Source: an uncultured Clostridium sp.
GTDB taxonomy: Bacteria; Bacillota; Clostridia; TANB77; CAG-508
Reading direction: 5' to 3'
DNA length: 64,000 nucleotides
Assembly (NCBI GenBank): GCA_947245515.1
Contig: CAMXQV010000002.1
Coordinates: forward strand, 141-64,140
Program-made: the position numbers and the translations under genes
Notes under the pieces: model-generated
Seen by the model: the letters and a program-made list of their open reading frames with translations, nothing else
Told to the model about the DNA's origin: nothing
The model's database searches: none
Part shown: piece by piece, positions 18,680 to 49,800 of the stretch
Position numbering within the stretch: position 1 is the first letter of the stretch
How the letters are laid out: each line of letters starts with the position of its first letter

Positions 18680-19222
18680 CTAATCTTTAATATATATATT
18701 TACTTTAGTAGGTCTACAATAATACATCCATTCTCCTTTTACAAAAATCTGAAGTTTACCTTCCTCTGCAAGGTATTTATATTCAGGAGATACTAATTGA
18801 TTTGTTACATGATCTTGCCTATCAACAAAATATTCTTTTATTTCTATTCCAAAATCTTCTACTTTTTTTTCTTTATAATTTTCAATATAACTAGAAATAT
18901 CACACTCTGCATAATATATATATCCTGTTTCAGTTCCATTAGTTTTATATTCAACTGGCAAATCACTTATTAATTTATATTTCTTTTCTTCTTCTTTAAC
19001 CTTATCTTTAATTATTGCATTCCATGCTACTTCATAATTTTCTAAAGTAGTATTTTCTAAGGCTTGTGCTTCTTTTTGTTTTTTATCTGCTTCTTTTGCT
19101 CTATTAATTAGTCCATTATCTGTTAATTGCATAATTACTATTCCTGATAAAATTATTATTATTATAAGAGTTATAATTAAGGCAATTAAAGTAATTCCCA
19201 TTTCTTTAGTATTATTTCTCAT
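18680..19222 (-). CDS. Pilin-like protein (paralog 1 of 3) with a prepilin-like hydrophobic N-terminus
   Basis: The N-terminus reads MRNNTKEMGITLIALIITLIIIIILSGIVIMQLTDNGLINRAKEA. This resembles the type IV prepilin leader plus helix, but Ala replaces the conserved Glu at position +5. The SD is GGGAGAG. Confidence 0.55.
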   Translation of the reverse strand: MRNNTKEMGITLIALIITLIIIIILSGIVIMQLTDNGLINRAKEADKKQKEAQALENTTLENYEVAWNAIIKDKVKEEEKKYKLISDLPVEYKTNGTETGYIYYAECDISSYIENYKEKKVEDFGIEIKEYFVDRQDHVTNQLVSPEYKYLAEEGKLQIFVKGEWMYYCRPTKVNIYIKD

Positions 19223-30813: not shown

Positions 30814-31467
30814 TCAAATTTTAAAAGAATTCCTATACTTTTTATAAGGAACCTTCTTTAATGAAAACTCTTCATCGTATACAATTCTAAATATTTCGAT
30901 TTTTAATCCATTTTCAAGCCCACGCTTAAGTTGATAATATATTTCTTCATATTTTTCATTTAATTTAATTCGTTTTATATTTGGATTCATAAGAATTATT
31001 ATTAACTTTTTAGAATATTTCCAATTATTAATTTCTTTTAGTTGTCTTAAAAAACGTTCTGTTTTAAACGTTGGAAATAAAGTCTCCTCATTTTCTGATA
31101 AAATTCCTTTTACTTCAATTAATTCTTTTGTTTTTGAATTAAAAAAATCTATTCTTAATTTATTACTAATTTGCTTTTCTCGAATTATAAAGTCGTTTTC
31201 TAGTAAAACTTTTTTATAATACAAATCATTTAAAGCTTTTAAATTCAACCAAATATATTCTTTGTTATCTTTAAGAGCTTGGACTACATATTTTGTTTTA
31301 GTATTTTTCCCCATATTTTTTTCTAATAAAACTTCTTTATCTTTTAAATCATATAATTTCTTAAATTTAGAAGATGTAGCCATATAACATGCTTCCTCTT
31401 TTCCATTTATATCAATAAAGGCAATAAATCTTCTATTAGCTTCTCTTTTAAATTTACCAATTATCAT
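30814..31467 (-). CDS. Hypothetical 217-aa protein with a possible PD-(D/E)xK motif; candidate small nuclease subunit of the adjacent RM system
   Basis: The segment RIDFF...ELIEVKG fits a D...ExK pattern. It lies in an operon with the methyltransferases, overlapping by 4 nt. The assignment is tentative. Confidence 0.35.
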   Translation of the reverse strand: MIIGKFKREANRRFIAFIDINGKEEACYMATSSKFKKLYDLKDKEVLLEKNMGKNTKTKYVVQALKDNKEYIWLNLKALNDLYYKKVLLENDFIIREKQISNKLRIDFFNSKTKELIEVKGILSENEETLFPTFKTERFLRQLKEINNWKYSKKLIIILMNPNIKRIKLNEKYEEIYYQLKRGLENGLKIEIFRIVYDEEFSLKKVPYKKYRNSFKI

Positions 31468-32492
31468 TTTATTTTCTTAAATACTAAAACTGCTTCTTTT
31501 TTTATTCTCTTTTGTGCCATTGTTTGATTTTGAAGATATCTAAAAGAATTTTCTTCAACTTTCCATCCATTATCTTTAAACAAGCAGATTGTCCAGTCAA
31601 CAAAATTTATTTTCTCTTTTTGTCTTGTAGTATCTCCTATAGTCATACACCAATATCCATTTGTTTTTACCATTTTCATTACATGTAAATAAATTTTTTC
31701 CATTTCATCAAAAAAATCCTTTATTGCTTGTTTTTTATTTCTTTTATTCCTAGCTCCTACTTCTTGATTACTTAAGGTTTCAACCTTTTTTTCCATCCAA
31801 TATAAAGTTAGTCTATGATATTTAATAAAATCTACTGCAAAAGGATATGGTGGAGAAGTTACTACTAAATTAATATTTTTAAAACTAGTATTTAATATAT
31901 CTGATTCTATACAAGTAACCGAAGTATTTATATTTTTTAACCAATCTGTTCTTTTGTATAATAGAGATAATTTTCTTTTAAATACTTTTATTGCATCAAC
32001 CTCTCTGTCAATATTAGGTAATACATTATCAGCAATATATCCAAGATTCCATGTTTTTCTACGTCTTGAACAATTATTAAGACAAGACAATAGTATTAAA
32101 TAAAATAAATTATAATATTTTTCATCTTTAATTTTTGATATATTATAATTCAATTCTCCCAATCTTTCTAAAATCTCATAGCTATACCAAATTTCTTTAT
32201 CTGGAAAGTCTGGTATTAGTATTTTATCTTGTTCCACTTTTAATATTTCTTTTGCATATTCTTTTATTTTCTCTATTTCATATTCTTGTGTCTTTACTTT
32301 AGAACATAAAATTCCTATTGGACTTAAATCAACTCCAATAACTTCCCTTTCTAATTTTAGACCTTCTAATAAGGTTGTTCCAGAGCCACAAAAAGGATCT
32401 AATACTAAATCACCTTTATTTGAATATTCCTGAATAAACTTTTTGGGGATTTCAGGATTAAATTTTGCGTGATATGGATATATATTATGCAT
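31464..32492 (-). CDS. DNA methyltransferase (N6-adenine or N4-cytosine, SPPY motif)
   Basis: Motif X/I reads YPYHAKFNPEIP...DLVLDPFCGSGTT. Motif IV reads NLVVTSPPY. Confidence 0.75.
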   Translation of the reverse strand: MHNIYPYHAKFNPEIPKKFIQEYSNKGDLVLDPFCGSGTTLLEGLKLEREVIGVDLSPIGILCSKVKTQEYEIEKIKEYAKEILKVEQDKILIPDFPDKEIWYSYEILERLGELNYNISKIKDEKYYNLFYLILLSCLNNCSRRRKTWNLGYIADNVLPNIDREVDAIKVFKRKLSLLYKRTDWLKNINTSVTCIESDILNTSFKNINLVVTSPPYPFAVDFIKYHRLTLYWMEKKVETLSNQEVGARNKRNKKQAIKDFFDEMEKIYLHVMKMVKTNGYWCMTIGDTTRQKEKINFVDWTICLFKDNGWKVEENSFRYLQNQTMAQKRIKKEAVLVFKKIK

Positions 32493-33267
32493 TTTTCCTA
32501 AATATTAAGCAATAATGATGATGTATATTAGATATAAATTTACTAGGGTATCCCCAAATACCTAGTTGTTTATCATCTTGGCACCAAATTTGTTCTCCTT
32601 CAAAAGAGAAACCACATTTTTCAATTTTGTTTACTAAGTCCCAAGCAAAGGTAACATATTTTCCATCAGAATTTCTAAAGTTTTGTACTACTACTACCAT
32701 ATATTTTTTTTCTTTTAATATCTTAAAACAATTCTTAAAAACTTTTGCTAATTCCTTTATAAAAATTTCGTAATCTTCAATATTTCCTAAATCCATAGGA
32801 TTATCTGAATAGTATAATTTTAAATTTTTTTCTTCTCTTTGTGTATGTTGTGAATTTGAATTTCCTCTTTTCTTTTTCAAAATATCCCAATAGGGTGGAG
32901 AGGTCATTATAAAATCTACTCCATCTGGAAATTTGTATAGTTTTTTGTCTCTACTGTCCCCTAATAAAATATTTTCTTCACCATATCTTTCGTTTGCTAT
33001 CTTGCAAAATTCATTATTTATTTCAATTCCATAGCCTATTCTTCCCTCTTCCTTTGCAGCAACTCCAGTAGATCCTACTCCCATAAAAGGATCAAAGACT
33101 GTTTCATCTATCTTTGTAAAAAACTTTATATATTTACTTGCTAATTCCTCTGGATATTTTGCTGGATGCTTTATAACATCATTTTTTCTAGTTTTTCCTT
33201 TAAGAATATACCATGATCTTGTTTCTTTAATCCATTCTTTGCCAGTTAAATCGTTAAGTTTATTCAT
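32485..33267 (-). CDS. DNA methyltransferase (second methyltransferase; N6-adenine or N4-cytosine, SPPY motif)
   Basis: Motif X/I reads KHPAKYPEEL...VFDPFMGVGSTG. Motif IV reads DFIMTSPPYW. It overlaps the downstream methyltransferase gene by 8 nt. Confidence 0.75.
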   Translation of the reverse strand: MNKLNDLTGKEWIKETRSWYILKGKTRKNDVIKHPAKYPEELASKYIKFFTKIDETVFDPFMGVGSTGVAAKEEGRIGYGIEINNEFCKIANERYGEENILLGDSRDKKLYKFPDGVDFIMTSPPYWDILKKKRGNSNSQHTQREEKNLKLYYSDNPMDLGNIEDYEIFIKELAKVFKNCFKILKEKKYMVVVVQNFRNSDGKYVTFAWDLVNKIEKCGFSFEGEQIWCQDDKQLGIWGYPSKFISNIHHHYCLIFRKNA

Positions 33268-33283
33268 TTTTTATCTTCCTTTC

Positions 33284-34990
33284 TTACACTCTTATTGTTA
33301 CATATGATGTTCCTAGAAATTTATTTGACCAAGTCCAAAAGTCTGGTGCTTGTATTCTTGATATATAATCTATTTTTTTATTATAATCAATTGCATCAAT
33401 AAATCTCATAAATTCTACATAACTAAAGGCTGTAACCATAGTCAATTTTGTTGTTTGTGGCATTATTGTACTCTGAATTTTTAAAAGTTTTTGTTTGAAA
33501 CTTAATCTATTTCCGCCTTCTCTGTAACCACCATGTATACCTTCTGTTTGTGGTATTTTATCACTATCTACAACCATATACCAGATACCATCATATTTTG
33601 TTTTTATCCTATCATCTTTTAAGGTATTTATTATATCGTCAATTTCTTTTCTTTCATCAAATTGCGTAATAGCTCTACCTGATTTTGCCTCAACTATAAT
33701 TCTTAGTTTTGTTTTTGAATTATCATCATTTAGCATAATAATATCCCATACTATATCAGATACTCTTTCTCCTATGGTATTAGCTCCCATATAGGTAACC
33801 TTTTCTTCTCCAAACTTATTTTTTAATAACTCATATAGGAATTCCTCGTATGCAGTACCATTTCCACTCTCAGAAATTTCTTTTCCCTTTTTGAATTCTT
33901 CTGTAGTTTCAAGTCTATTACTTAAAGGTAACTTATCAATTATCTTTATTTCCTTTAGATATTGTTTTACTAAGTTTCTATCTGCTAAATCTGTATCAAT
34001 ATTAAAATCATATAGTGAATAGTTATTATTATCAATAAGTCCTAAAGTCCTTAAATGATGTCTTAATTCATCTTCTTCAATTTTTTCAGGATGAGCTAAT
34101 CCCTTTAAAAATAATGGTGTAACTTCTAAATCGTCATATAAATCTCCTATAAATACAGCTTTTTCCTTAAAGCTATATTTATTAATATCAAAATCCTGTA
34201 AGTCAAAGCTTAAAGGTCTTTCTTCCACAACTTTTAAACCAATTCCTTCAATAAGATGCCTTTTTAGAAATAAGGTTCCCCTCTGAATTTCCCTATAATC
34301 AATTTCAGAAAATTCAGAACGAGTAATTGGCTTTATTAAGTATAAATCTATCTCATCTTCATTTTTTACTTTTCGTGTTATATAAGATAAAGTATTAGCA
34401 TCGATTTTCTTATAACCTTTTTCTTTAAAAATTTGCATAATTTTAAGTAATACTACAAAAGGCCTATTTCTTACATCATATTGTTCTATATTATCAGAAT
34501 TTTTTGATGCATTTCTAAACTTCATATTATATAAGATGTCAGAATAGCTAATTTCTCCTACCTTATATCTTTTTAAGGTATTTCCTACATAATGTCTTTT
34601 TTCATTTTCTATTGATTTCCCTTTATAATAAGAAGGCATCAGACCTGTAAAAGCAAAAAATTCAAAATAATCTCTAGCTTGCTCATTCCAACATCCATTT
34701 AAGGTCTTTTTAGGACTATAGGGTTTATTTTTTATATCTACATATTTTAAAGTTCCTTCTTTTATTCCATTATAATAGGATAATAATCTACCATCTTTTA
34801 TGAAATTCCTATACATACCTGGATGATATTTTTCAAATACGCCTTGTTTTATTTCTTCTTCAAACATCTTTGCTTTTAAATCATCATATAGGTAATATTC
34901 TTTATTTTCATCAATTAAACTAATAATAAATTTTATTTCGTCTGGAATTATTGCGTTATGTGGAAAATGAAAACCTGTTATTTTACTCAT
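33284..34990 (-). CDS. Putative Type II/IIS restriction endonuclease of 568 aa with a C-terminal PD-(D/E)xK domain
   Basis: The C-terminal half contains VSDIVWDIIMLNDD...LRIIVEAKSG, which fits D...ExK. The protein has a large N-terminal region and is adjacent to two methyltransferases. Confidence 0.5.
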   Translation of the reverse strand: MSKITGFHFPHNAIIPDEIKFIISLIDENKEYYLYDDLKAKMFEEEIKQGVFEKYHPGMYRNFIKDGRLLSYYNGIKEGTLKYVDIKNKPYSPKKTLNGCWNEQARDYFEFFAFTGLMPSYYKGKSIENEKRHYVGNTLKRYKVGEISYSDILYNMKFRNASKNSDNIEQYDVRNRPFVVLLKIMQIFKEKGYKKIDANTLSYITRKVKNEDEIDLYLIKPITRSEFSEIDYREIQRGTLFLKRHLIEGIGLKVVEERPLSFDLQDFDINKYSFKEKAVFIGDLYDDLEVTPLFLKGLAHPEKIEEDELRHHLRTLGLIDNNNYSLYDFNIDTDLADRNLVKQYLKEIKIIDKLPLSNRLETTEEFKKGKEISESGNGTAYEEFLYELLKNKFGEEKVTYMGANTIGERVSDIVWDIIMLNDDNSKTKLRIIVEAKSGRAITQFDERKEIDDIINTLKDDRIKTKYDGIWYMVVDSDKIPQTEGIHGGYREGGNRLSFKQKLLKIQSTIMPQTTKLTMVTAFSYVEFMRFIDAIDYNKKIDYISRIQAPDFWTWSNKFLGTSYVTIRV

Positions 34991-35201
34991 TTATTTCCTC
35001 CGAATTCTAGTTTTTATTTTATATTTTTTATCTAAAATAATAATTGTTATCTATTAATTTATATTTTATTTTATATCATAAAATCCTTATTTTAACAACA
35101 AAATTTGACAAATTTAGTTAATAATATGTTATCCTAGTTAAATTAATTGATATCTTTTAATATATATATTATAATAAAGTAAACATATAATATAAAAGGA
35201 T

Positions 35202-35414
35202 GTGATTGCAATGAAGCAAGCAAGTAAACTAAGAGTAGCGAGGGAAATAATTGAAAATAAAATAGCTGAATGTATGATTCAACTAAGAAACTCATCAGAT
35301 GAAGAATTACAAAAAAAATATAAAATATTAATAAATATTAGAGAAGAAATTTATAAAGGTAATATCAAAGAAATAGACAAAGTAATAAAAGAAGAAGGGA
35401 GTAAAAATGATTGA
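35202..35414 (+). CDS. Small epsilon-like antitoxin candidate of 68-70 aa
   Basis: It is predicted helical and acidic. It overlaps the start of the zeta-toxin gene by 8 nt. The more likely start is the ATG at 35211, which has AAAGGA upstream. Confidence 0.45.
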   Translation: MIAMKQASKLRVAREIIENKIAECMIQLRNSSDEELQKKYKILINIREEIYKGNIKEIDKVIKEEGSKND

Positions 35415-36330
35415 TTCAAGAATAAAAGCCAAAGATAGAATTTACAAAGAACTACCAGAGAATATAAAAAAACTCATGGAACAATATATATTACCAAGAA
35501 AAGAACATGAAAGAATTCTTGATGATATAAAAAAGCAATCATATTATGGAAAAAGAACAGAAAAACATCCAAAATTCATTATAGTAGCTGGACAGACTGG
35601 AAGTGGAAAAAGTAATTTAACTTCACTAATATATACCAAGAATAGTAATTTAATTATTATAGATTCAGACAAATATAAAGCATACAGATCAGATAACTCT
35701 GAAATTCTAAGAGATCACTTTGCAGAATATGCATTTTTAACTGCTCCAGACTCATATTTGCATAGAGATGAAATGATAGAAGATGCAATGAAATATAAAT
35801 TTAATATATTAATGGAGTGTGCAACATCTGAAAAAGACAAATTATTTGTAGATGTACAAGAAATCCAGAAGGCAGGATATAGTGTAGAATTGCATGTGTT
35901 AGGAGTAAGTTCATTAAATAGTGCAATATCAGTTCACGAAAGATATGAAGCCTTAATAAAATTAAACCTTAACACAGCTAAATTGACAGGATTAAGAAGA
36001 CATGATGATTCCTTTAATTCCTTAATTAGTGCAGTATTAGATAATAAAGATGTAGAAATTAACATATATAAAAGAGGAAAAAAATATCCATATGAACCAG
36101 AATTAGTGTACAGTCCAAATAATAAAAATAGAAGATTCTCATGTCCAGCAGAGGCCTTACTGTATACTCAAAGGCAAGATCTTAAAGAAACCATACCAAC
36201 AGTAGAAAGTAGATGTGAAATAATAAAAAAACAAATGAAAGCAAGACAAGCTCCAGAAAATCAAGTTAGACAATTAGCAGAAATAAAAAAAAGATATGAA
36301 GCTATTATTGAAAGGGAGATGGAAAAATGA
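35407..36330 (+). CDS. Zeta-toxin-family P-loop kinase
   Basis: The Walker A motif is VAGQTGSGKS. The zeta-type IIIDSDKYK motif is present. The 307-aa length fits zeta toxins plus a C-terminal extension. Confidence 0.7.
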   Translation: MIDSRIKAKDRIYKELPENIKKLMEQYILPRKEHERILDDIKKQSYYGKRTEKHPKFIIVAGQTGSGKSNLTSLIYTKNSNLIIIDSDKYKAYRSDNSEILRDHFAEYAFLTAPDSYLHRDEMIEDAMKYKFNILMECATSEKDKLFVDVQEIQKAGYSVELHVLGVSSLNSAISVHERYEALIKLNLNTAKLTGLRRHDDSFNSLISAVLDNKDVEINIYKRGKKYPYEPELVYSPNNKNRRFSCPAEALLYTQRQDLKETIPTVESRCEIIKKQMKARQAPENQVRQLAEIKKRYEAIIEREMEK

Positions 36331-37130
36331 AAATAATAATTTTAGGTACAGGACATGGATCTGCAACAGAATGTTATAATACATGTTTTACAATAAGAGA
36401 AAATGAAAAACATTTTTTAGTTGATGCTGGAGGAGGAAATGGTATATTAAAACAATTATCAAATATGAAAATTAAGGTTGAAAATATAGAAGCCATGTTC
36501 ATTTCACATACTCATACTGATCATATAATGGGATCTATATGGATTATAAGAATGATTGCAAGAAAGTATCTAGTAGAAGATTATAATAAACCATTTTACA
36601 TTTATGGAAATGATAAAGTTATAAATGCTATAAGAAAAATATGTGAAGTAGTATTACCAGAGAAATTTAATGAATTAATGAATAATAAAATTAAATTAAA
36701 TATAGTTGATACTGGTGATGAAATAGAAATAATAGGAAAAAAAGTCCAATTTTTTGATATCAAAGCTAAAAAAGTAAAACAAACTGGATTTGTTATGTGG
36801 CTAAAAGACCAAGAAAAGTTTACTTTCATAGGAGATGAAACATGTTCAAAGGAAACAGAAAAATATGTTAAAAATAGTAAATGGCTTTTTGCAGATGCAT
36901 ATATGGCTGGGAAAGAAGCAGAAGAATATAATCCAATAAAAAGACATCATCATAGTACTGTAAAATTCACTTCAGAATTATGCCAAAGATTGAATGTAGA
37001 AAAGGTCATATTATCACATACTATAGATACTGATTTAAAACATAGAAAGAAAAATTTTACTACAGATGCCAAAAAATATTTTAAAGGAACAGTATTTGTG
37101 CCAGATGATTTAGAAATAATACAACTATAA
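36327..37130 (+). CDS. MBL-fold metallo-hydrolase
   Basis: It has the HTHTDHIMG motif (HxHxDH). Its start overlaps the zeta gene stop as ATGA. Confidence 0.75.
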   Translation: MKIIILGTGHGSATECYNTCFTIRENEKHFLVDAGGGNGILKQLSNMKIKVENIEAMFISHTHTDHIMGSIWIIRMIARKYLVEDYNKPFYIYGNDKVINAIRKICEVVLPEKFNELMNNKIKLNIVDTGDEIEIIGKKVQFFDIKAKKVKQTGFVMWLKDQEKFTFIGDETCSKETEKYVKNSKWLFADAYMAGKEAEEYNPIKRHHHSTVKFTSELCQRLNVEKVILSHTIDTDLKHRKKNFTTDAKKYFKGTVFVPDDLEIIQL

Positions 37131-39769: not shown

Positions 39770-39967
39770 CTCTTTGCTTTTTATGGCTTTATTTTACTAC
39801 TTGTCCTTCGTGGTTTTTGTCTTTTTTAGTAGTCTAACTAAAAAAACTTTTTTACATTTTATGATATTATTTTTTTGTTTTTTATCTTAAATATCTTTTT
39901 ATGCCCTTTATTTTATTATATATGGTCGAAAATTGCAATATTTTTATAGTAATCGCCTAAAAAAAAT

Positions 39968-40003
39968 AAAAGTGTCAAAAGACTAAACTTTTTGACACTT
40001 TTA
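39968..40003 (-). terminator. Rho-independent terminator downstream of the giant adhesin gene
   Basis: AGTGTCAAAAG and CTTTTTGACACT form the stem. A U-run follows on the minus strand. Confidence 0.6.
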
Positions 40004-40006
40004 TAA

Positions 40007-43000
40007 TTATTTTTTTAGTTTTCTTTTAAGAATTATAATACCTGTTCCTAGTATTGCTAAAACAGCTACTCCAATAGTAATTGGTAATATGTAATTTTGG
40101 TTTTCACCAGTACTTGGTGTAACAATAACCTGTTCTGACTTATCTTCATCTGACTCTAAAGGAGTTGAACTATCACTTGGAATATAACTTCCTGTAATTG
40201 TAGTAATTTTAGATCCTCCTGGTTTAGTGATTTTTACAATTTCAGTTTCATTATTTAGTAAAATCTCATCAGTTGTAGTTAAAGTTTTTGATACGTTAAG
40301 TTTAATATTTCTATCAGTACCTGGTAAAACTTTTTCTTGATGTAATTTAGTTGTATACAAGATTATCTTATTATTAATATCTGAAGTATCTCCAAATACA
40401 TCTGGGCTAACTGTTACCTTTTCTGTTATTCCACTAACTGAATATTGAATTCCGTCTGTTTGTAATTGTTCTTTTGTTATAGCAGTCCATCCATATTCTT
40501 CATTTTTACTTGTTTCATAACCCCAAGCTTTATCTAGGTAATCAATAATTATATTTGGTGTTGTATAAACAACTTCACTTTCTTTTACTGTTCCTACTTC
40601 TTTATTGTTATAATCAAATAGTTTATAAGCTCCCTCTTTCATAACACTAGAACCAAATTTATAATAATTTGAATTTATTACATCTACTTCGCTAATATTA
40701 TTGTATTTGAATTCGTAGGTAACTTCTAAAATTGCACCTTGTATTAATTCATTATCTAACTCAACTTTTATAAAGCCTGGATTGTAATTTACGGTTCCTC
40801 TATTAATTGGTCCCATATAAGTTACATGATTTTTTTCACCTTTTAGTTTTCCATTTTCAACGTCTACATCTGAAACAACTTCACCATTTGCTAAAGTTAC
40901 TCTTAAATGACTTACTCTTTTCTTTAATTCATTTTGTTGAATTGCTCTTTTTACAATTCCAAAATCAATATTAGTTATTTCATAAGTATATTGGTCTCCA
41001 GTAGATGCTGAATATACATCTTCATATTCAACTCCAACTTGCATTGGAAGTGTTGTTGAGTCCATTGTACGATTTTTAGTTATTTTCTCATCTGAAGTAA
41101 AGGTTCTATTTTTTATTTCATCATCTATTTCTAATCTAGTCTTATAGTCATCAATTGCATCTGTATATCTTGTTTCTTTATTATTTAAGTCAATTCCATC
41201 TCCTCTATACCACTTTCCAACTTTTAATGTACTTCCATCTATGATATTATCATATCTCGCCTTATTGTATATTGTTCCTTTATAATCTTGCACCTTATAG
41301 GTACCATATTGTTCTCCCCAAGTATATACTACTACATAGTCTCCTGGTATAAAGCCCGCAATATCAAAGTTACCTCCACCTGATGTTTTGCTATCTTCTT
41401 CTGACCAAGTAGCTTTTGTTTCATATTTATCAAATTTTTCTACTGCCCCTGATATACTTTCTTTATATTTATTTTCTCCTATGAAATATTCCATACCAGT
41501 ATTTTTCTCTACAATTTTAACTTTTACTCCATCTATTCCTGTATCCTCTGCATCAAGCAAGCCATTTGCTTCTCTAATTTTAGCTGTTTGTAGTCCATCA
41601 ACTGTTTTATCTAGGAATACTTGACCTTTAAGATGTCTAGCGTTGTCTGCTACTTGTAATTGTAAGGTTGGTGCTGTATCTGTATCATCTTCATAAGTCT
41701 CTTTCTTTTCAGGTTCAATATTTCCTGGTTCAGAATCTTTATCTATTCCTGCATATGGTTCTTCAAAGGTATCAAATACAGAATATGAATTTATTTCAAC
41801 TATATTGTCTAATAAACCTTCTTCCTTCTGATTTATTAAAGCTAATACTTTAGCTCTACTTAACTTAAATTGTACATAAATATCTTGTGTTTCTTGTGGA
41901 TTTATTATTTTATTAACATCCTCGGTATTTATTATTATCTTTTTATATTTGTTGTTACTTGTTTCTACGGTTTCTTTGCTTATATTATTTACTTTAATAT
42001 TTCCTTTTTCATCTAATTCTGTACCAATTGCTACAATTTCTTCATAATTAGCATCATAGTAATCAACAAGACTATTAATTTTAGCTTTTAATTCTGTAGC
42101 TTCATTTCTAATTTGTATTTTATAAGTTATATAAGCTTTTAATTCTCTACTTACATCCTCTGGATTTTGCCATGTAAAGTCTGATTTATAAATTGGTCTT
42201 GTGTATTTTTGTTTACCATATTCATTTCCAAATTTAACACCAACATTAAAGCCTTCACTATATGCACCTGCATTTACAAATCTTTGTGCATAATCATAGG
42301 TATGTTCATATCCATTTATTGTAAGTCTTACATTTTGTATATCTTTTACCACTGCTAAATCTGGTTGCATTTTTTCATAAATTCCTAAATTAATATTTCT
42401 AACTTCTTCGAATTTCTTTCCTTCTGGAACCTTTAAATAGTCTCTTAATTCGATTATTGAAGTATCTGCATATATTCTTATTCCATCACTTCCAGTTTTC
42501 GGATCAACTATTCCTTTTCCAGTCTCCGCAGTATAACCTAAATGTTGTACTAAGGTTGATTTGTGTTCTTTGGAATCACGTTTATAACTCAAGCTATTTG
42601 TTTCAGTATTATCTGCTTTCTTTGAAACACCTTTTTCAATTATTGCATATTGTGCATTTAATTTTTCTCTATCTTTGTCTGCTGATTTCGATCCATTTGT
42701 TTTTTCAGGATGTGGTTTTACATTTTCATATTTTAGTCCATTATATTTAAACATAACGTTATAATTGTCTAATTCGCTTTTTAGCACTTTCTTAAACTCA
42801 TAAAATCCATTTTTGTCTGTATAAGTTATAAATTCTTTTCCATCTTCATTTTTAACTGTTTCGCCTGAACCTACATATACTAGTCTTACTTCTATACCTT
42901 CTATGAGTGTTTCTCTAGTATCATATTCATCATTACGTAAGGTCTTTTTACTTGTATCATGTGTATCTTCCCATACAATACCAGATAATTTTGTATAAGC

Positions 43001-46000
43001 TTGCTGATTTCTTACTTGTACATCACAGACAAAAGATGCTCCAGCTGTTGTATTAGGATTTTGTAAATCAAGTTCTATTTCACCTTTATGTAATCTATAA
43101 AAGTCCTCATCTTCCTTATTTACTAGCCCTGTTTCTATTGCATAATATTTTCTATGTGCTTCTATTTTACGTAAGTTTATATACCCCTTTTCATCTGTTA
43201 CAAATTCTTTTGCACTACCTTCGTTAGTTGTATAGTTAACTATTGAAGGTTCTAAAGCTCCTGTTTTCTTATTAGTTCTTTCTGTATATGAACTAATGTA
43301 ATGTTTATTATGACTTTCATCATAATAATATATTTTAAATTTTACACCTGACATTGGTTTTATATTAGTAACATCTATATCATCTACTTTATATAATCTA
43401 ATATTTCCATATGCCTTATTTCCAAAGGTTACTTTTTGTTCATAGTCTTTATATACTGAAAATTGTCCAGATGATACTACTTCTATATTTCTATTTAAAT
43501 CTGTATCCAGTCTTCCATAATGATAAATTTGGTCATTAAGGTCATAAGGTGCAGGACAAGCTATTTCCTCAACTTTATAATAGTAAAAGTCTCTTGAATC
43601 TATATCATCTACTCTTAGTCCAGTCCAAACTGCATACCCATTTGAATTTGATACAGCTATACTATGTTTATACCATCCTGTCTCATTCTTTACTGTTCCT
43701 CCATACCCATTATCTGTAAACCATACATTTTTACACCATAATTGGAAAGTTGCACCTGGAATTGGTTTCTTTGTATCTACATCGTATTTGTAAGCTGATA
43801 ATTGACCTGTTTTAGTTATTATTTTTTTATCCATAAAAATTACTGTTGCTGGTGTTATTTTACCTACTTCTACTGTTACTATTTGACTTGCTGGATCTGA
43901 AATTTCATATCCTTTAGGTGGCACTGTTTCTGTTACTAAGTATTGACCAGGCTGTAAATTATCTAATTGCACTGTACCATTATATAATACCTCTACATTA
44001 TCTTTTCTATATCCTTCTGCACCTGTTCCCTTTATTCCTATAACTGAGAATTTTGCTCCATTTAACTTCTGTCCATCTTCTTTAGATACCTTCATAATTT
44101 TCAAACTTCCTAAGTCCTTTTTTATTTTGGTATCATAAAACTTTACATCTAGTACTTGATTCTTTTCTTCTATATTAACTTCTTGTTTTGCATATTCTGG
44201 GTCTATAGTATAACCTTCTGGTGCTTTTGTTTCTATAACTGTATATTTTCCTAGTGGTAAATTAGATACTGTTACAGTACCATCCTCTCCTGTTTTTATT
44301 CCTTCTTTTTTCTCTCCTGTAGGATATATTAAGGTAAATTCTGCTCCCTTTAGTGTACGTGAAGCAAATAGTGGATGCTCTTTATCCCTTTTAATAATCT
44401 TTAAGCTTCCAACATCGTTTTTTGGTTGTGGTAGAGTTAAATTTAAACTTGTATTGTAACCAACTGGTTCTAAAATCTCTGCCTTTCCACGATAAACTCT
44501 TTCTAGATCTTGAGCATCTTTTGTATTACAACATCCATGCCCATTATGACTTCCTTCACTTGAATATATACATTTCCATACTTCTCTAACTATCGCTGTT
44601 ATTTTATATTTAACTTTTTTGGTTAATTGTTTAAAATCTAATTTTATTTCCTTTATATTTTTTATGTTGTCTTTTTTATCATCAACTTTAATATAAAATT
44701 CTTTTCCATTTTTAAATACATTTTTTTCATTTTCTATTACTTTACCATTTTCATCAAATATGTGTTTTGCATCAAATATCTCTGTTCTACCTCTTTTAGT
44801 TGTATATACTACTCTTGTATTTACATCAAAACTACCTTTAAGACAACTTTCATCTATTTTACTTACTTTGTAAGGTCCAATATAAGTATAATTATCTTTT
44901 TCAATATATTTGATTTTTGACTTATTTGAGTCATCTGATATTATTGGTGCCTCAGTTTCTACTTTTTGTTGTTTCTCTATTTTTGTAATCTCTGCACTTA
45001 CTCTTTCATAAGTATGGTCTGCAGAACCACACATTGATTTATTTGGTGTAATACAATGTAATTTCATTTTATTAAAGTATTCTTCTAGGCTTGAATCATG
45101 GGTTGCAAAGTTATTACTTGAACTATTTACTGTTACTTTTCCACCCATATCATCTTTAAGAAAGTCTTTTATTTTTAAGTCTTTTGTAGTTAGAGTTTGT
45201 GCTTGGCTAATATTTGGCATATTCATTACTACTATTGACATTAATATTGTCATAAACATCATTAAATTCTTGATATTAATTTTCTTTTTCTTAATTAAAA
45301 ATCCAGTTAATAGTAATATTCCCAAAAGAGCTACTATTATAATAGTATAAGTTATTATACCTGTTTTTATAGATACAATAAGTTGTGCTTCTGAGTAATC
45401 ATCTTCTTCTCTGTTTTTATTATTTTCTGTTGAGTCTATATCTTTTACATTTGTAGTTGATGTTGCTTTTTTAATTTCAGCAGCATTTGTAATAGTTCCT
45501 GTTTCGTCTTCTGTCATCTTTTTAGTTAATACTACAGTAATCTCTTTACTTTCCCCAGCTGAAATTTTTGTATGTGCTAATTCATCACTAACTATTGTAT
45601 CTTTTGTGTTTTGTCTCCAAGAATTATTTATAGCTTTATCAAAAGTTAATCCACTAGGTAAGTAATCTACTATTTCACTTACATAAGCTTCTACTTCTCC
45701 CTCATTTTTTACTACTATTTTATATTCAATTTGCAAAGTACTATTATTTAAGTATTTAGAAGGTATCTCTACTTTTTCCAATTTTCCTTTTTTGTATTTA
45801 TATTCTTTTGTCCCTGCTTTATTAGTTACTGTAACTTTTGATACATATTTTTCTAGAGATAAATCAAATATACTATTTTTTATTAAGCCCATGTCTATAT
45901 TTTCTTTATTTTCACTAAGCTCTATTATATTTGTTATACCTACACTTTTTATATTTCCATCTATACTTACTTCTTTTTCTACTGCATCATTATTAAGGTT

Positions 46001-49000
46001 TTCCCCTACACCACTTTTTTGATAAGTAGTTAAGGTATAGTTATTTGTATCGTATTCAAATAAAACCATATAATTGTTTTCTTGTAAAGCTTCAAATTCA
46101 TAGTTTCCATTATTATTAGTAGTTGTTTCTTTTACTAAAGAATTTGTTGTTGCATTATATAATTTTACTTTTATATTTGATAATAATTGTTCGTCTTCCT
46201 TTCTTTCTCCATTTTTGTCACTATCCATCCAAACTACACCCTTTATTTTATAGTTTGTTTTATTATCTTTATTTTCTATATTATTATCATCTTTTTCTTG
46301 GTTATTTTCTTCCTTCTTATCTGTATTATCTTCTTTTAAATTGTCATCTATATTATCTACTTTTGTTGGTACTATTGTAGCTTTTATTATATTAGATTGT
46401 GTAGCTTTTAGATCATCTCCTGTTATTGTTACCATATTTTCAATGTCTGTTCTATCTGTAACATAATCTGCTTTTGCATAAATTTTTAGTTGCATTTGCT
46501 CTTTGTCTGGAATAGAACAATTTATATGTACATTCGCATTTTCTTTTCCATCTTCATCTATTGTAACCTCTGATATATCCTCTGTTTCTACTGTCTTAAT
46601 ATATTTTCCTGTTTTTTCATCTATTTTAAATTCACCTGTGTCTTCATCTATTTCAAACTTTTCATATTCAATTTTGTCTGGTATTAACGCTTTTGGTAAA
46701 TAATCTTGTACATCTATATTTGTTCCTAAAATGTCACTTGCTCCAATATTTTTTATTGTAATATTATATTGTATTTCTTCGTTTTCTTGTAATTCTTTTC
46801 CTTCTTTTTCAGAAGTTTGTACTATTTGGATTGCTTCTGTTAATATTTTCATTCTATTTTCGTTTGAATAATAGGTATCATCTTTATAAGAAACTTTTGC
46901 TGACATACTTATATCATATTCATATTTACCATTTTCATAATTTTTGTGTATTGTATCTATAACTATATTGGCTTTACTATTTGCTTTTATTTCTGGTATT
47001 TTTATAGTTAGTTTTCCATCTTCAAGATTTTTTTCTAAGTTAGTTTCTTTTGCATAAGTTTTACCTTCACTATCTGTTCCAAGCTCATAGGTTTCTATAT
47101 TTGTTACATCAAATTCTACTGGAATTTGGCAAGTTGCTTTTATATTTTCAATAGTTTCCTCTGTATTATTGTAAATCCATAAACCATAACCATATTCTTT
47201 GTCTACATTGTTACCTGATTGTAGTCTTACAGTTAGGTCTCCATTTTTTATAGTTGTTTTTTGTGAATTACTTGTTGTTTCAATATTTTCAATATAGGTT
47301 TTTAGAGTTTGTTGTATTTCTTTTGAGGTTTCACCTTCTGTTAATTTGTTTACTTGTACTTCATAAAATCTTATAATTGATTTTCCTGCTTCTATACTTG
47401 CTATATTTTCTTCATATTTTTTTACACTTTCGTCTTTTACATAAACATATGCATTTTCTGCTGTTGAGTCAAGTCCTAGTTTTACTTCTGCATAGGTTGT
47501 ACCTTCTGGTACGCTACCTTCAAGTTTTATATTATTTAGAGTGTCCTCAGTTGTATTTGTAATTCTTACCATATATTTAATAATTTCATCTTCATGTATA
47601 GTATCAGTTTCTGCTAAAGTTTTATCTCCTACAACTGCTATTGTCTCTACTTTAATTTTTTCTGATTCTTTTATATTTTCTTTTAATGGTTCTTCTTCTA
47701 TTCGTTGTGTAAGCTTGTTATCTTCTTTTTGCTCTTTTTGCATTTCAATAACAGATTCTATGTCTATATCTATCTGCTTATTTTCTTTTCCTTGTTTCTT
47801 ATAATCTATAAGAGTTGCTGTATCATTTTTATAGGTTACATCTATTGTACTTTTTTTGCTTTCAATTTCTTTTTTTACTATTATAGTTGCTGGAATAACT
47901 AGGTTACTTCCTTCTATTATTGAATTTAAATTATAAGAGTTTTGAGTTCCATCTAATTCAACTTTAATTGCTTTACTTCCGTTATTATCCACAACTTCTG
48001 CACTTTTTATTGATAAATTACTATCATATAATAAAGCTACATCTCCTAGTATTATTTTTTCTACTTCACTAGGAAAAGTAAACAAGATAACAGGATTTTT
48101 AAATAAATTATATTTTATATTATTGTTTAGTAAAGTTGCTGTTAAGGTTATTTCGTTTTGAATTTTGTTTGTTAATTTTGTTTTATCAAGTGATACTTTT
48201 ATATTTGTTTCTGAAGCTTTTATTTCCTCAAAGCTAATATTTGATGAATTGTAGATTTCTTTTGTTTCTTCGTTATTTGTACAGGTTACTTTTTGAGTTG
48301 TCTGTAGCTTTTTATAGTTATTATTTTTCATATCTGCTTTTATTGCTTTTTTATTTTTTATTGCAAAAGAACCTATTTTTATAGGCTTTGTTGTTGTAAT
48401 AACTATTTTTTCTGTTTCTTCTGGATAATTTATTTCTACTAATCCATTTTCTATTTCTTCTGATTTACTAGTTATTTCTCCTATTACTTCCTTTTTATCG
48501 TTTAATATTGTGATTTTTCCGTCTTCACCTAAATAGTCTATAATATCTTGTTTTTTTATTGTAGTTTTTTTGTATAAGATACCACTAGCTATGCTATTAT
48601 TTTCGCTGTCTATAAATTGATTATTTAGTTCTAATCTTATTTTATCTGCTATTTCAGCATAACTAAAATTTACATCTATTGTTTCTGTATATTCTGTTTC
48701 ATTTTGTGTTCCATTTACTTCATTTGCATATATAAATCCATTATAGATTTCACTATTTGATATCTTTGTAGATATTAATTCACTTTTGTTTGATGTGTGT
48801 GTTTCTTGTAGATTAAATTGTTTTTCTATTTTTGTTTCGTTTTCATCTTCAAGGGTTTCTATTACTGTTCCTGTGATTTCTAATTGTCTCTCTTTTTCTT
48901 CTTTATAACAGTTTGAATTGTAATATGCATAAATTTCATATATGTCTTTTGCATCTTTTACTTCTTTATTATAAGCATTTGTATTAGATGCTTTTATATT

Positions 49001-49414
49001 TAATTTTCCTGTTTCTTTATTGTAGTCGTAAGTTGCTTCTTTTTCTTGTTTTTCTCCATTTGTTGCTTCTGTACTTTTTGCAATTACTTTTATTTGTTCT
49101 GGATATTTGTCCTCTATTTTTGGCATATTTAATATAGATTCTGTAACTTTTAGAGGTGTATATTCTTGCCCTTCTTTATATTGTATTCCAGTTTGCAATT
49201 CTGCTTGATATAATACTCCTTTGTTTTCTTCGTCTAAGTTATAGTTTATATATTTTTGTGTTTCTATATTTAATATTACTTCTGCTTTTTCTTTGTTGTT
49301 TGTATTTTCTATAGCATAACTATAAATGCTTTTTCCAACATATAGAAAATTTGACATTAGTATTGTAAGAATTAGTGTTATTATAACTCCAATTTTTAAA
49401 ATATTTCCTTTCAT
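40007..49414 (-). CDS. Continuous 3135-aa ORF that reads as two surface-protein genes joined in frame
   Basis: Part A runs 49414 to about 45263 (about 1384 aa). It has a signal peptide, DUF11-like repeats and Cna-B units, then a DUF11 module, a transmembrane helix and the tail KKKKINIKNL, with the same architecture as the 4509-aa protein. Part B runs from about 45262 to 40007. It opens with a second signal-peptide-like MMFMTILMSIVVMNMPNISQAQT. Cna-B/SdrD-like domains follow (GIVWEDTHD...NGFYEFKKV). Its C-terminus is VTPSTGEN, then a hydrophobic helix, then KRKLKK, which looks like a sortase-type sorting signal. There is no stop between the parts and no good SD before part B. Confidence 0.6.
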   Translation of the reverse strand: MKGNILKIGVIITLILTILMSNFLYVGKSIYSYAIENTNNKEKAEVILNIETQKYINYNLDEENKGVLYQAELQTGIQYKEGQEYTPLKVTESILNMPKIEDKYPEQIKVIAKSTEATNGEKQEKEATYDYNKETGKLNIKASNTNAYNKEVKDAKDIYEIYAYYNSNCYKEEKERQLEITGTVIETLEDENETKIEKQFNLQETHTSNKSELISTKISNSEIYNGFIYANEVNGTQNETEYTETIDVNFSYAEIADKIRLELNNQFIDSENNSIASGILYKKTTIKKQDIIDYLGEDGKITILNDKKEVIGEITSKSEEIENGLVEINYPEETEKIVITTTKPIKIGSFAIKNKKAIKADMKNNNYKKLQTTQKVTCTNNEETKEIYNSSNISFEEIKASETNIKVSLDKTKLTNKIQNEITLTATLLNNNIKYNLFKNPVILFTFPSEVEKIILGDVALLYDSNLSIKSAEVVDNNGSKAIKVELDGTQNSYNLNSIIEGSNLVIPATIIVKKEIESKKSTIDVTYKNDTATLIDYKKQGKENKQIDIDIESVIEMQKEQKEDNKLTQRIEEEPLKENIKESEKIKVETIAVVGDKTLAETDTIHEDEIIKYMVRITNTTEDTLNNIKLEGSVPEGTTYAEVKLGLDSTAENAYVYVKDESVKKYEENIASIEAGKSIIRFYEVQVNKLTEGETSKEIQQTLKTYIENIETTSNSQKTTIKNGDLTVRLQSGNNVDKEYGYGLWIYNNTEETIENIKATCQIPVEFDVTNIETYELGTDSEGKTYAKETNLEKNLEDGKLTIKIPEIKANSKANIVIDTIHKNYENGKYEYDISMSAKVSYKDDTYYSNENRMKILTEAIQIVQTSEKEGKELQENEEIQYNITIKNIGASDILGTNIDVQDYLPKALIPDKIEYEKFEIDEDTGEFKIDEKTGKYIKTVETEDISEVTIDEDGKENANVHINCSIPDKEQMQLKIYAKADYVTDRTDIENMVTITGDDLKATQSNIIKATIVPTKVDNIDDNLKEDNTDKKEENNQEKDDNNIENKDNKTNYKIKGVVWMDSDKNGERKEDEQLLSNIKVKLYNATTNSLVKETTTNNNGNYEFEALQENNYMVLFEYDTNNYTLTTYQKSGVGENLNNDAVEKEVSIDGNIKSVGITNIIELSENKENIDMGLIKNSIFDLSLEKYVSKVTVTNKAGTKEYKYKKGKLEKVEIPSKYLNNSTLQIEYKIVVKNEGEVEAYVSEIVDYLPSGLTFDKAINNSWRQNTKDTIVSDELAHTKISAGESKEITVVLTKKMTEDETGTITNAAEIKKATSTTNVKDIDSTENNKNREEDDYSEAQLIVSIKTGIITYTIIIVALLGILLLTGFLIKKKKINIKNLMMFMTILMSIVVMNMPNISQAQTLTTKDLKIKDFLKDDMGGKVTVNSSSNNFATHDSSLEEYFNKMKLHCITPNKSMCGSADHTYERVSAEITKIEKQQKVETEAPIISDDSNKSKIKYIEKDNYTYIGPYKVSKIDESCLKGSFDVNTRVVYTTKRGRTEIFDAKHIFDENGKVIENEKNVFKNGKEFYIKVDDKKDNIKNIKEIKLDFKQLTKKVKYKITAIVREVWKCIYSSEGSHNGHGCCNTKDAQDLERVYRGKAEILEPVGYNTSLNLTLPQPKNDVGSLKIIKRDKEHPLFASRTLKGAEFTLIYPTGEKKEGIKTGEDGTVTVSNLPLGKYTVIETKAPEGYTIDPEYAKQEVNIEEKNQVLDVKFYDTKIKKDLGSLKIMKVSKEDGQKLNGAKFSVIGIKGTGAEGYRKDNVEVLYNGTVQLDNLQPGQYLVTETVPPKGYEISDPASQIVTVEVGKITPATVIFMDKKIITKTGQLSAYKYDVDTKKPIPGATFQLWCKNVWFTDNGYGGTVKNETGWYKHSIAVSNSNGYAVWTGLRVDDIDSRDFYYYKVEEIACPAPYDLNDQIYHYGRLDTDLNRNIEVVSSGQFSVYKDYEQKVTFGNKAYGNIRLYKVDDIDVTNIKPMSGVKFKIYYYDESHNKHYISSYTERTNKKTGALEPSIVNYTTNEGSAKEFVTDEKGYINLRKIEAHRKYYAIETGLVNKEDEDFYRLHKGEIELDLQNPNTTAGASFVCDVQVRNQQAYTKLSGIVWEDTHDTSKKTLRNDEYDTRETLIEGIEVRLVYVGSGETVKNEDGKEFITYTDKNGFYEFKKVLKSELDNYNVMFKYNGLKYENVKPHPEKTNGSKSADKDREKLNAQYAIIEKGVSKKADNTETNSLSYKRDSKEHKSTLVQHLGYTAETGKGIVDPKTGSDGIRIYADTSIIELRDYLKVPEGKKFEEVRNINLGIYEKMQPDLAVVKDIQNVRLTINGYEHTYDYAQRFVNAGAYSEGFNVGVKFGNEYGKQKYTRPIYKSDFTWQNPEDVSRELKAYITYKIQIRNEATELKAKINSLVDYYDANYEEIVAIGTELDEKGNIKVNNISKETVETSNNKYKKIIINTEDVNKIINPQETQDIYVQFKLSRAKVLALINQKEEGLLDNIVEINSYSVFDTFEEPYAGIDKDSEPGNIEPEKKETYEDDTDTAPTLQLQVADNARHLKGQVFLDKTVDGLQTAKIREANGLLDAEDTGIDGVKVKIVEKNTGMEYFIGENKYKESISGAVEKFDKYETKATWSEEDSKTSGGGNFDIAGFIPGDYVVVYTWGEQYGTYKVQDYKGTIYNKARYDNIIDGSTLKVGKWYRGDGIDLNNKETRYTDAIDDYKTRLEIDDEIKNRTFTSDEKITKNRTMDSTTLPMQVGVEYEDVYSASTGDQYTYEITNIDFGIVKRAIQQNELKKRVSHLRVTLANGEVVSDVDVENGKLKGEKNHVTYMGPINRGTVNYNPGFIKVELDNELIQGAILEVTYEFKYNNISEVDVINSNYYKFGSSVMKEGAYKLFDYNNKEVGTVKESEVVYTTPNIIIDYLDKAWGYETSKNEEYGWTAITKEQLQTDGIQYSVSGITEKVTVSPDVFGDTSDINNKIILYTTKLHQEKVLPGTDRNIKLNVSKTLTTTDEILLNNETEIVKITKPGGSKITTITGSYIPSDSSTPLESDEDKSEQVIVTPSTGENQNYILPITIGVAVLAILGTGIIILKRKLKK

Positions 49415-49800
49415 ATTTTCCTCCTTTATTTTGTTTTTATATATTTTATTTTTTATAGGTTTTGTTTTATTTCTTTAGTTGCTTATAAATTATGTCAATT
49501 TTCTTTTGTTTTACTTACGGCTACTTAATATAAATAATATTTGTTTTTATATATTTTTCATATTCTTTATATTCGCTACTTTTTATTATACCTTTTTTTT
49601 CTAGTTTTTTCAATGTTTTACAGTAAATTTTTTCATATTTTTTTATGTTTACCGTTTTTTAGTAATAACTCTGTTTTATTTGTATCCGTAATACTACAGT
49701 TTATGCTTATTTTATCAGTACTATTATATAAAGTAACAATTTTGATTTTTTTTCATATCTTAATAATATATATTTACATACTTTAATAATATATATAGAG

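Follow-up and report, generated by a model that had tools for sequence, protein, structure and literature searches.

On the reverse (-) strand of the window, i.e., the whole stretch of 64,000 nucleotides from contig CAMXQV010000002.1 of an uncultured Clostridium sp. analysed here, a single uninterrupted open reading frame (ORF) of 3135 codons (40007..49414; stop codon TAA at 40007-40009) encodes two consecutive surface adhesins, designated parts A and B (together A=B), with no stop codon at their join. With a probability of about 80 %, this ORF reflects a fixed fusion of two adjacent surface-protein genes and encodes a polyprotein, part B of which is probably freed by signal peptidase. The original prediction had described a complete adhesin followed, without a stop, by a signal-peptide-like segment and a second surface protein, and had offered a genuine fusion, a slippery or phase-variable junction, or a sequencing error as explanations; re-reading of the sequence proved the description itself accurate.

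An exhaustive profile search with the N-terminal domain (N-domain) of part B retrieved a protein of 3135 amino acids (P0041) that is 100 % identical over the matched stretch. Its 90 % cluster comprises six sequence variants, each of 3135 amino acids and with an invariant junction, and one of them is encoded on 16 contigs of the same species that were separately assembled from different sequencing runs. At the DNA level, the 56-nucleotide junction is identical in all 6 loci fetched. An exact look-up and a word-index protein search, the latter with the hairpin plus the B N-domain, both missed these same-species copies of the 3135-residue protein; queries of low complexity, rich in K, N and I, seem to swamp the list of candidates.

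Scanning one genome per species identified L008 as the orthologous locus in a sister species; there, the neighbouring penicillin-binding protein (PBP) and MinC are 98 and 91 % identical, respectively, and the fused ORF is intact (3142 amino acids, 80 % identity over 3129 residues). A codon alignment of the window with L008 and three further relatives (L009, L010, L011) contains no indel at the join and displays synonymous and conservative changes, some of them inside the A-tract. The ratio of non-synonymous to synonymous substitution rates (dN/dS) between window and sister species amounts to 0.25 for part A, 0.27 for the N-domain of part B and 0.17 for the rest of part B. Since these values range from 0.17 to 0.27, both halves are under purifying selection.

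In 71 related loci, the reading frame was traced beyond each A-type tail. At about 32 non-redundant junctions it stays open and runs on into a B-type protein for 400-1900 residues; these junctions derive from at least 23 species-representative metagenome-assembled genomes (mouse, human, rabbit and other gut) and 3 metagenome contigs. Roughly 56 tails stop 38-62 residues past the motif, a count that includes C-termini of B proteins (roughly 41 of the 56 are A-type). As to whether related genomes carry one gene or two, which the original prediction had considered informative, the sister species and at least 23 species genomes have the fused form, whereas more distant syntenic relatives have two genes.

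The fused junctions are of uniform anatomy, consisting of a helix of 22-27 residues, a loop of 7-14 residues with a charge of +3 to +6, and a second hydrophobic stretch of 12-20 residues followed by a small-x-small site (ISQA↓Q, TNQA↓K, TFA↓A, VSA↓I, SNA↓E etc., assigned by eye and a simple rule; the arrow marks the putative cleavage position). Practically every fused relative has retained this small-x-small c-region, even though the surrounding sequence has diverged to about 35 % identity. A Shine-Dalgarno-like sequence is missing from 28 of the 32 fused junctions, and 10 of the 32 have no methionine near the second helix (e.g., L011 with KHIIPLMAIIL, P0034, P0001, L002 and L004). Full-length homologues of the part B N-domain were found only inside other fused proteins (P0043, P0044). 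Taken together, the occurrence of the junction in 16 assemblies, in the sister species and in about 32 cases overall, along with dN/dS ratios of 0.17-0.27, supports the genuine in-frame fusion among the explanations initially offered. Two tandem fused A=B genes are present at each of six loci (L012, L017, L018, L044, L054 and L056), and at three others (L037, L041, L047) an unfused pair with TAATCxxATG stop-start spacing is located directly upstream of a fused gene.

A Shine-Dalgarno sequence (AAGGAGG, 49420..49426) is located 5 nucleotides upstream of the part A ATG and is the sole such site for the whole ORF. The best promoter-like match on the same strand, judged by consensus match only, is TTGAAA-17-TATAAT at 49613-49585. 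Directly after the stop codon lies a palindromic terminator-like hairpin (39966..40004), and no terminator-like hairpin was found between A and B. Residues 1-34 (49313..49414), with MKGNILK, a hydrophobic core and SYA↓IE (cleavage site placed by eye), represent an N-terminal Sec signal peptide as judged from their sequence. The subsequent ectodomain of about 1310 amino acids (residues 35-1347; 45374..49312) contains DUF11/CLIPPER repeats, SdrD_B and a terminal CLIPPER-like domain according to Pfam and NCBIfam (Pfam: SdrD_B, 5e-15; DUF11/CLIPPER, 2e-7). Part A ends with the proline-free sorting-type motif SIKTG (residues 1348-1352; 45359..45373), the T-G pair of which is kept in nearly all A-type tails seen, and the 22-residue transmembrane helix TM1 (IITYTIIIVALLGILLLTGFLI, residues 1353-1374; 45293..45358; hydropathy 2.66).

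The adjoining loop KKKKINIKNL (residues 1375-1384; 45263..45292), with a net charge of +5 and probably cytoplasmic, holds the tract AAGAAAAAGAAAATT to which the original prediction had drawn attention. It is followed by an internal signal-peptide-like segment (MMFMTILMSIVVMNMPNISQA, residues 1385-1405; 45200..45262) and then QTLTT, with a signal-peptidase site predicted by eye and a simple rule after A1405 (ISQA↓QT, between nucleotides 45200 and 45199). The junction DNA reads AAG AAA AAG AAA ATT AAT ATC AAG AAT TTA ATG ATG, and the stretch reading through the A/B join is KKKKINIKNLMMF; sequence inspection revealed no GGAGG-like site upstream of the junction ATGs. The part B ectodomain (about 1690 amino acids; 40121..45199) comprises an N-domain with a C..P...C....H.Y motif, three SpaA domains (3e-38), SdrD_B (5e-9) and a long C-terminal region without assigned family; Pfam and NCBIfam searches with the N-domain yielded no family and no thioester domain. 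It terminates in the sortase-type motif TPSTG (40106..40120), which ends 32 residues from the C-terminus, and a hydrophobic helix with the basic tail KRKLKK (40010..40105). A hydrophobic segment followed by a basic tail hence occurs in both parts, in part A as the 22-residue helix with KKKK.

An AlphaFold2 (AF2) model of 700 amino acids across the junction, based on an input of only 4 sequences and with a mean predicted local distance difference test score (pLDDT) of 65 (40-60 in the B N-domain, too low for a fold search), displays a beta-strand followed by a helix-turn-helix. The segment YSEAQLIVSI forms the last beta-strand of the CLIPPER domain and runs straight into the helical pair, the two helices being at positions 317-341 (TM1) and 345-361 (second segment) of the modelled residues.

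Unfused pairs, i.e., the syntenic loci L005 and L007 and about 35 others, encode homologous proteins with the same tails in the same neighbourhood (MreBCD-PBP-MinC ... A, B ... SpoIIE). They differ in being two cistrons, with a stop codon, a spacer of 12-26 nucleotides usually containing AAGGAGG, an ATG and a charged n-region of the MNKK type. In L005, A and B are separated by a 21-nucleotide gap, with SpoIIE further downstream, and in L007, A and B are located further downstream of MreBCD-PBP-MinC. The long ORF of the window appears to have originated by fusion of two such adjacent cistrons, the unfused state of which is visible in living relatives. The fusion has removed the stop codon that ended gene A and the Shine-Dalgarno sequence between the genes; a third of the relatives have lost the gene B start codon as well. 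Once fused, these genes draw the positive charges for the part B signal peptide solely from the basic tail of part A.

In a neighbour-joining tree of the last 300 residues of part A, the fused tails form one clade, and with a second alignment and distance method the unfused L027 falls inside this clade. A single ancient fusion would be the simplest reading, if a weakly supported one. In L027 itself (~7640-7720), a fused-type junction is broken by a frameshift, with part A ending in KKKGGEIDWKKLKVKF followed by two stop codons and part B starting 2 nucleotides later as MVAVFICVITVFMKCSFA, then EGK, with neither a Shine-Dalgarno sequence nor a charged n-region; this locus is a candidate for secondary fission or for an assembly indel. 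The N-domains of part B differ visibly in their motifs: those of the fused clade (44400..45199 (-) in the window) share C..PG...C....H.Y, and the N-termini of unfused B proteins carry motifs (F/YC[IV]EH and HQRALW-like) that recall the thioester domains of adhesins. A Pfam search with these unfused B N-domains returned no thioester domain and no family.

With neither a stop codon after gene A nor a Shine-Dalgarno sequence between the genes left, one mRNA with one ribosome-binding site gives rise to a precursor of 3135 amino acids. Part A would be exported by the N-terminal signal peptide, and its tail (SIKTG, the 22-residue helix and the +5 loop) would stop transfer and stay in the membrane, with the loop on the cytoplasmic side according to the positive-inside rule. 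The former signal peptide of part B may then re-insert with its N-terminus inside and its C-terminus outside and restart export, this time of part B. Signal peptidase I is predicted to cut after ISQA and to free part B from the hairpin, upon which part B, with TPSTG, helix and KRKLKK, would be handed to sortase. Part A would either be cut at SIKT↓G, by sortase or another enzyme, or be held in the membrane by the hairpin. The hairpin of two transmembrane segments and a loop with both parts outside, proposed at the outset, is supported together with the genuine fusion; all fused junctions have the short positive loop and, after it, an AXA-like site. A likely benefit would be the obligatory 1:1 production, at the same site and from one initiation event, of two giant fibrillar adhesins.

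Among 19 B tails, the motif xP[SP]TG[ED] ([VT]P[SP]TG[ED]) is conserved, and the part B tail of the window scores 15.5 bits with the NCBIfam model LPXTG_anchor versus a cut-off of 15.9. Substrates of sortase SrtB of Clostridium difficile carry (S/P)PXTG, and SPSTG is cut by this enzyme (PMC4155245); the TPSTG of part B resembles the latter. Other surface proteins of the window add to the range of tails. A 720-residue protein with three SpaA domains (22085..24247 (-)) possesses a canonical LPKTG sorting signal. A protein of 4509 residues (3013..16542 (-)), with five SpaA domains, an N-terminal helix only and no internal hairpin, ends with FILSIRTG, a helix and KKYVL, which is the proline-free tail type of part A. 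A DUF11 protein running off the window (62817..64000 (-)) likewise ends with IIMIATG, a helix and KKYVL. To judge from these tails, the genome employs no fewer than three motifs (LPKTG, xPSTG and S[IV]xTG).

Several points weigh against the polyprotein and its processing. All steps of precursor processing are predictions from sequence, and the organism, a low-GC gut Clostridia, is uncultured and known from metagenomes alone. The signal-peptidase sites were chosen by eye and a crude rule, and some picks fell inside the hydrophobic core. The SIKTG of part A has neither the proline at position -3 nor the leucine at -4 of LPXTG-like motifs, sharing only T-G with them, and in the AF2 model it lies immediately behind the final beta-strand of a folded domain. 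C. difficile SrtB left the similar motif NVQTG uncut in vitro (PMC4155245). No sortase was found among about 35 ORFs of the 64-kb window scanned with Pfam, and a search of 1.2 Mb of related loci with a Staphylococcus aureus SrtA probe revealed a single one (in L028) and none near fused genes. The bootstrap value for a strict split between fused and unfused genes is 11-19 of 100, so that a single origin is weakly supported. Finally, the gene is interrupted away from the junction in some fused relatives (L002/L003, L001, L004), by in-frame stops or by frameshifts; these copies may be decaying or their assemblies imperfect.

The lone sortase of L028 (16448..17281; Pfam PF04203, 88.5 bits; TLITC) is encoded some 5.4 kb downstream of where an unfused A gene ends. 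In the genome of the window a sortase is to be expected, because the window encodes a canonical LPKTG protein.

The damaged copies were inspected individually. L002 has an in-frame TGA (1512-1514, inside SdrD_B) and an in-frame TAA (4566-4568), both of which recur in L003 and are considered real because they are identical in two independent metagenomes. An alternative genetic code was rejected, as one TGA and one TAA permit no consistent reassignment; nonsense mutations are more likely than recoding, and this fused homologue is a decaying copy or is read through. The frameshifts in L001 (~6515-6536, in part A) and L004 (3020-3033, 130 residues into part B), both metagenome sequences, may be errors or pseudogenes. 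Just downstream of the fused adhesin gene of L002, a gene resembling TrbC/type IV secretion system pilin (7254..7640) hints at some fused copies residing on conjugative elements.

Among the alternatives, the fused protein could remain unprocessed, as a single three-helix membrane protein that shows two ectodomains and is held by the hairpin and the C-terminal helix. Such an arrangement would agree with the position of the proline-free SIKTG directly after a beta-strand, with the failure to find a sortase among the scanned ORFs of the window, and with a second hydrophobic segment of 15-20 residues, which could serve as signal anchor. It is nevertheless rather unlikely, considering that the small-x-small c-region persists in fused relatives while the sequence around it has diverged, that B tails retain the proline-containing xP[SP]TG, and that the LPKTG protein leads one to expect a sortase in the genome. 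At the opposite extreme, the polyprotein could be cleaved twice, by signal peptidase after ISQA and by sortase or another enzyme at SIKT↓G, resulting in two wall-bound adhesins and a conserved, possibly functional two-helix peptide of about 54 residues (G1352-A1405). One may speculate on this outcome as a long shot; if true, the released peptide could report adhesin export in the membrane or keep A and B assembling side by side at 1:1, and, if it is functional, the hairpin itself would be under selection beyond both adhesins.

Part B might also, or mainly, arise from internal initiation at the ATGs of residues 1385/1386, in which case the locus would act as two genes. The window and L008-L010 do have one or two ATGs just before the second hydrophobic segment. 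They are not preceded by a Shine-Dalgarno-like sequence, in contrast to the start of part A and to most unfused B genes with their AAGGAGG; a product beginning with MMFMTIL would be devoid of a positive n-region; the methionine is absent from the same 10 of 32 junctions as mentioned above (L011, L002, L004 and others); and there is no stop before the ATG and thus no termination-driven reinitiation. Internal initiation is on these grounds improbable. The stop codon next to a start codon by which coupled gene pairs are recognized is present as TAATCxxATG in L060, L037, L041, L047 and L033, and as TAATAATG in L027, whereas the window junction has no in-frame stop. The original prediction had taken the lack of a Shine-Dalgarno sequence before part B to favour translational coupling or fusion. 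The lack itself was confirmed; as coupling would require a stop codon and none is present, it argues for fusion and not for coupling.

A phase-variable or slippery junction, where a slip of 1 nucleotide in AAGAAAAAGAAAA would toggle between one fused gene and two, had been suggested on account of TAA triplets in both other frames. These triplets are indeed present: deletion of one A would create ...ATT TAA overlapping the ATG (a TAATG stop-start overlap), and addition of one A would create AAT TAA. They are uninformative, however, in a window of 27 % GC with off-frame stops every 7.5-8.4 codons along the whole ORF. The same holds for the A-tract, which at the junction amounts to A5+A4, while the ORF contains 97 A-runs of five or more (64 A5, 23 A6 and 10 A7). 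Tract and off-frame TAAs are ordinary for DNA of this composition and occur no more than by chance; beyond chance is the open frame itself, reproduced over strains and species. Phase-variable loci possess a long simple repeat, the length of which varies among strains, and A5/A4 is no such repeat. The junction is, moreover, invariant in the six independent assemblies, the identical protein is encoded on the 16 contigs, and the tracts of L010 and L011 have changed with the frame kept. The broken junction of L027 with its overlapping stop and start speaks for slippage, which is still highly improbable on balance. A sequencing or assembly indel that falsely joined two ordinary genes, as the two-gene state of more distant syntenic relatives might suggest, is excluded for all practical purposes, since the same ORF recurs in independent assemblies and in many species, the cross-species codon alignment keeps the frame open without an indel, and the junction retains no trace of a Shine-Dalgarno sequence, stop codon or n-region.

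In the textbook scheme, a Gram-positive surface protein has one gene, one signal peptide and one C-terminal sorting signal. The fused protein shares with sortase-anchored surface proteins and pilins the signal peptide, the isopeptide stalk domains (SpaA, SdrD_B, CLIPPER/DUF11) and the tripartite tail with its motif, helix and basic residues. It differs from them, each being the product of one gene with a C-terminal signal, in that one sorting-type signal is internal, and the S[IV]KTG of part A is no proven sortase site. Polyproteins of flaviviruses and pestiviruses as well as the FbcH cytochrome b/c1 precursor of Bradyrhizobium are cut at internal signal peptides. They resemble the fused protein in having an internal signal sequence behind a stop-transfer helix and in relying on host signal peptidase to separate the mature parts, whereas the proteins and their functions are unrelated and there is no sortase step. 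To our knowledge, bacterial polyproteins cut at internal signal peptides are rare. In engineered staphylococcal hybrids, an internal sorting signal is reported to work with polypeptide following (Navarre and Schneewind in 1994); these hybrids were artificial, and their downstream part, with no second signal peptide following, is said to have stayed cytoplasmic. No natural adhesin-adhesin fusion of this type was encountered in a literature search, of incomplete coverage, on internal signal peptides or polyproteins with sortase, internal LPXTG and TANB77 adhesins.

The stalk domains SpaA, SdrD_B and CLIPPER/DUF11 have been described with isopeptide bonds (10.1101/2025.04.25.650565), and by its domain content the protein belongs to the isopeptide-domain fibrillar adhesins, i.e., long secreted proteins with tandem CnaA/CnaB-type stalk domains. 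The closest architecture is found at the N-terminal end of streptococcal IgA1 protease and the paralogous ZmpB, ZmpC and ZmpD. In these proteases, LPXTG is combined with two transmembrane segments, and a second signal-peptidase site has been postulated (PMC3518915, citing Bender & Weiser 2006); their second hydrophobic segment is suggested to serve as an additional signal peptide, cut by signal peptidase, for export of the large downstream domain (PMC3518915). The likeness is one of architecture only and comprises the signal peptide, an internal sorting-type motif, two hydrophobic segments and a signal-peptidase-like site. Zmp proteins have only a short part ahead of the motif, and what follows it lacks a sorting signal of its own, whereas here a complete adhesin of about 1310 amino acids stands upstream and another one of about 1690 amino acids with an xPSTG tail downstream. 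Further differences are the absence of proline from the motif, the absence of an HEXXH/M26 domain (Pfam yields only SdrD_B, DUF11 and SpaA), and the visible origin of the fused polyprotein from two adjacent genes. By analogy, the fusion protein would work like the Zmp/IgA1 anchor without being a member of that family.

Over deep divergence, a clade of gut Clostridia has kept a protein whose sorting-type anchor leads into another export signal and another complete adhesin. If the predicted processing is true, this would be a polyprotein that occurs naturally in bacteria and is separated into its parts by the general secretion machinery, and it would extend a design so far proposed solely for the short N-terminal region of the streptococcal Zmp proteases. 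The fusion also illustrates how two secreted proteins can be joined with the export of both preserved, and such ORFs should not be "corrected" or split during annotation. The junction could furthermore represent a compact and portable cassette, usable for the co-display of two proteins from one transcript.

Elsewhere in the window, an ORF of 180 amino acids (18680..19222 (-)) starts with MRNNTKEMGITLIALII and resembles the N-terminus of prepilins (type IV pilin-like); an adjoining ORF of 437 amino acids had no Pfam match. In the region 31464..37130, a zeta-toxin gene (35407..36330) overlaps a gene for a protein with metallo-beta-lactamase fold, and two DNA methylase genes and an ORF of 568 amino acids without assigned family are located downstream on the other strand. 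This region may represent a restriction-modification/defence islet between the adhesin/SpoIIE locus and housekeeping genes.

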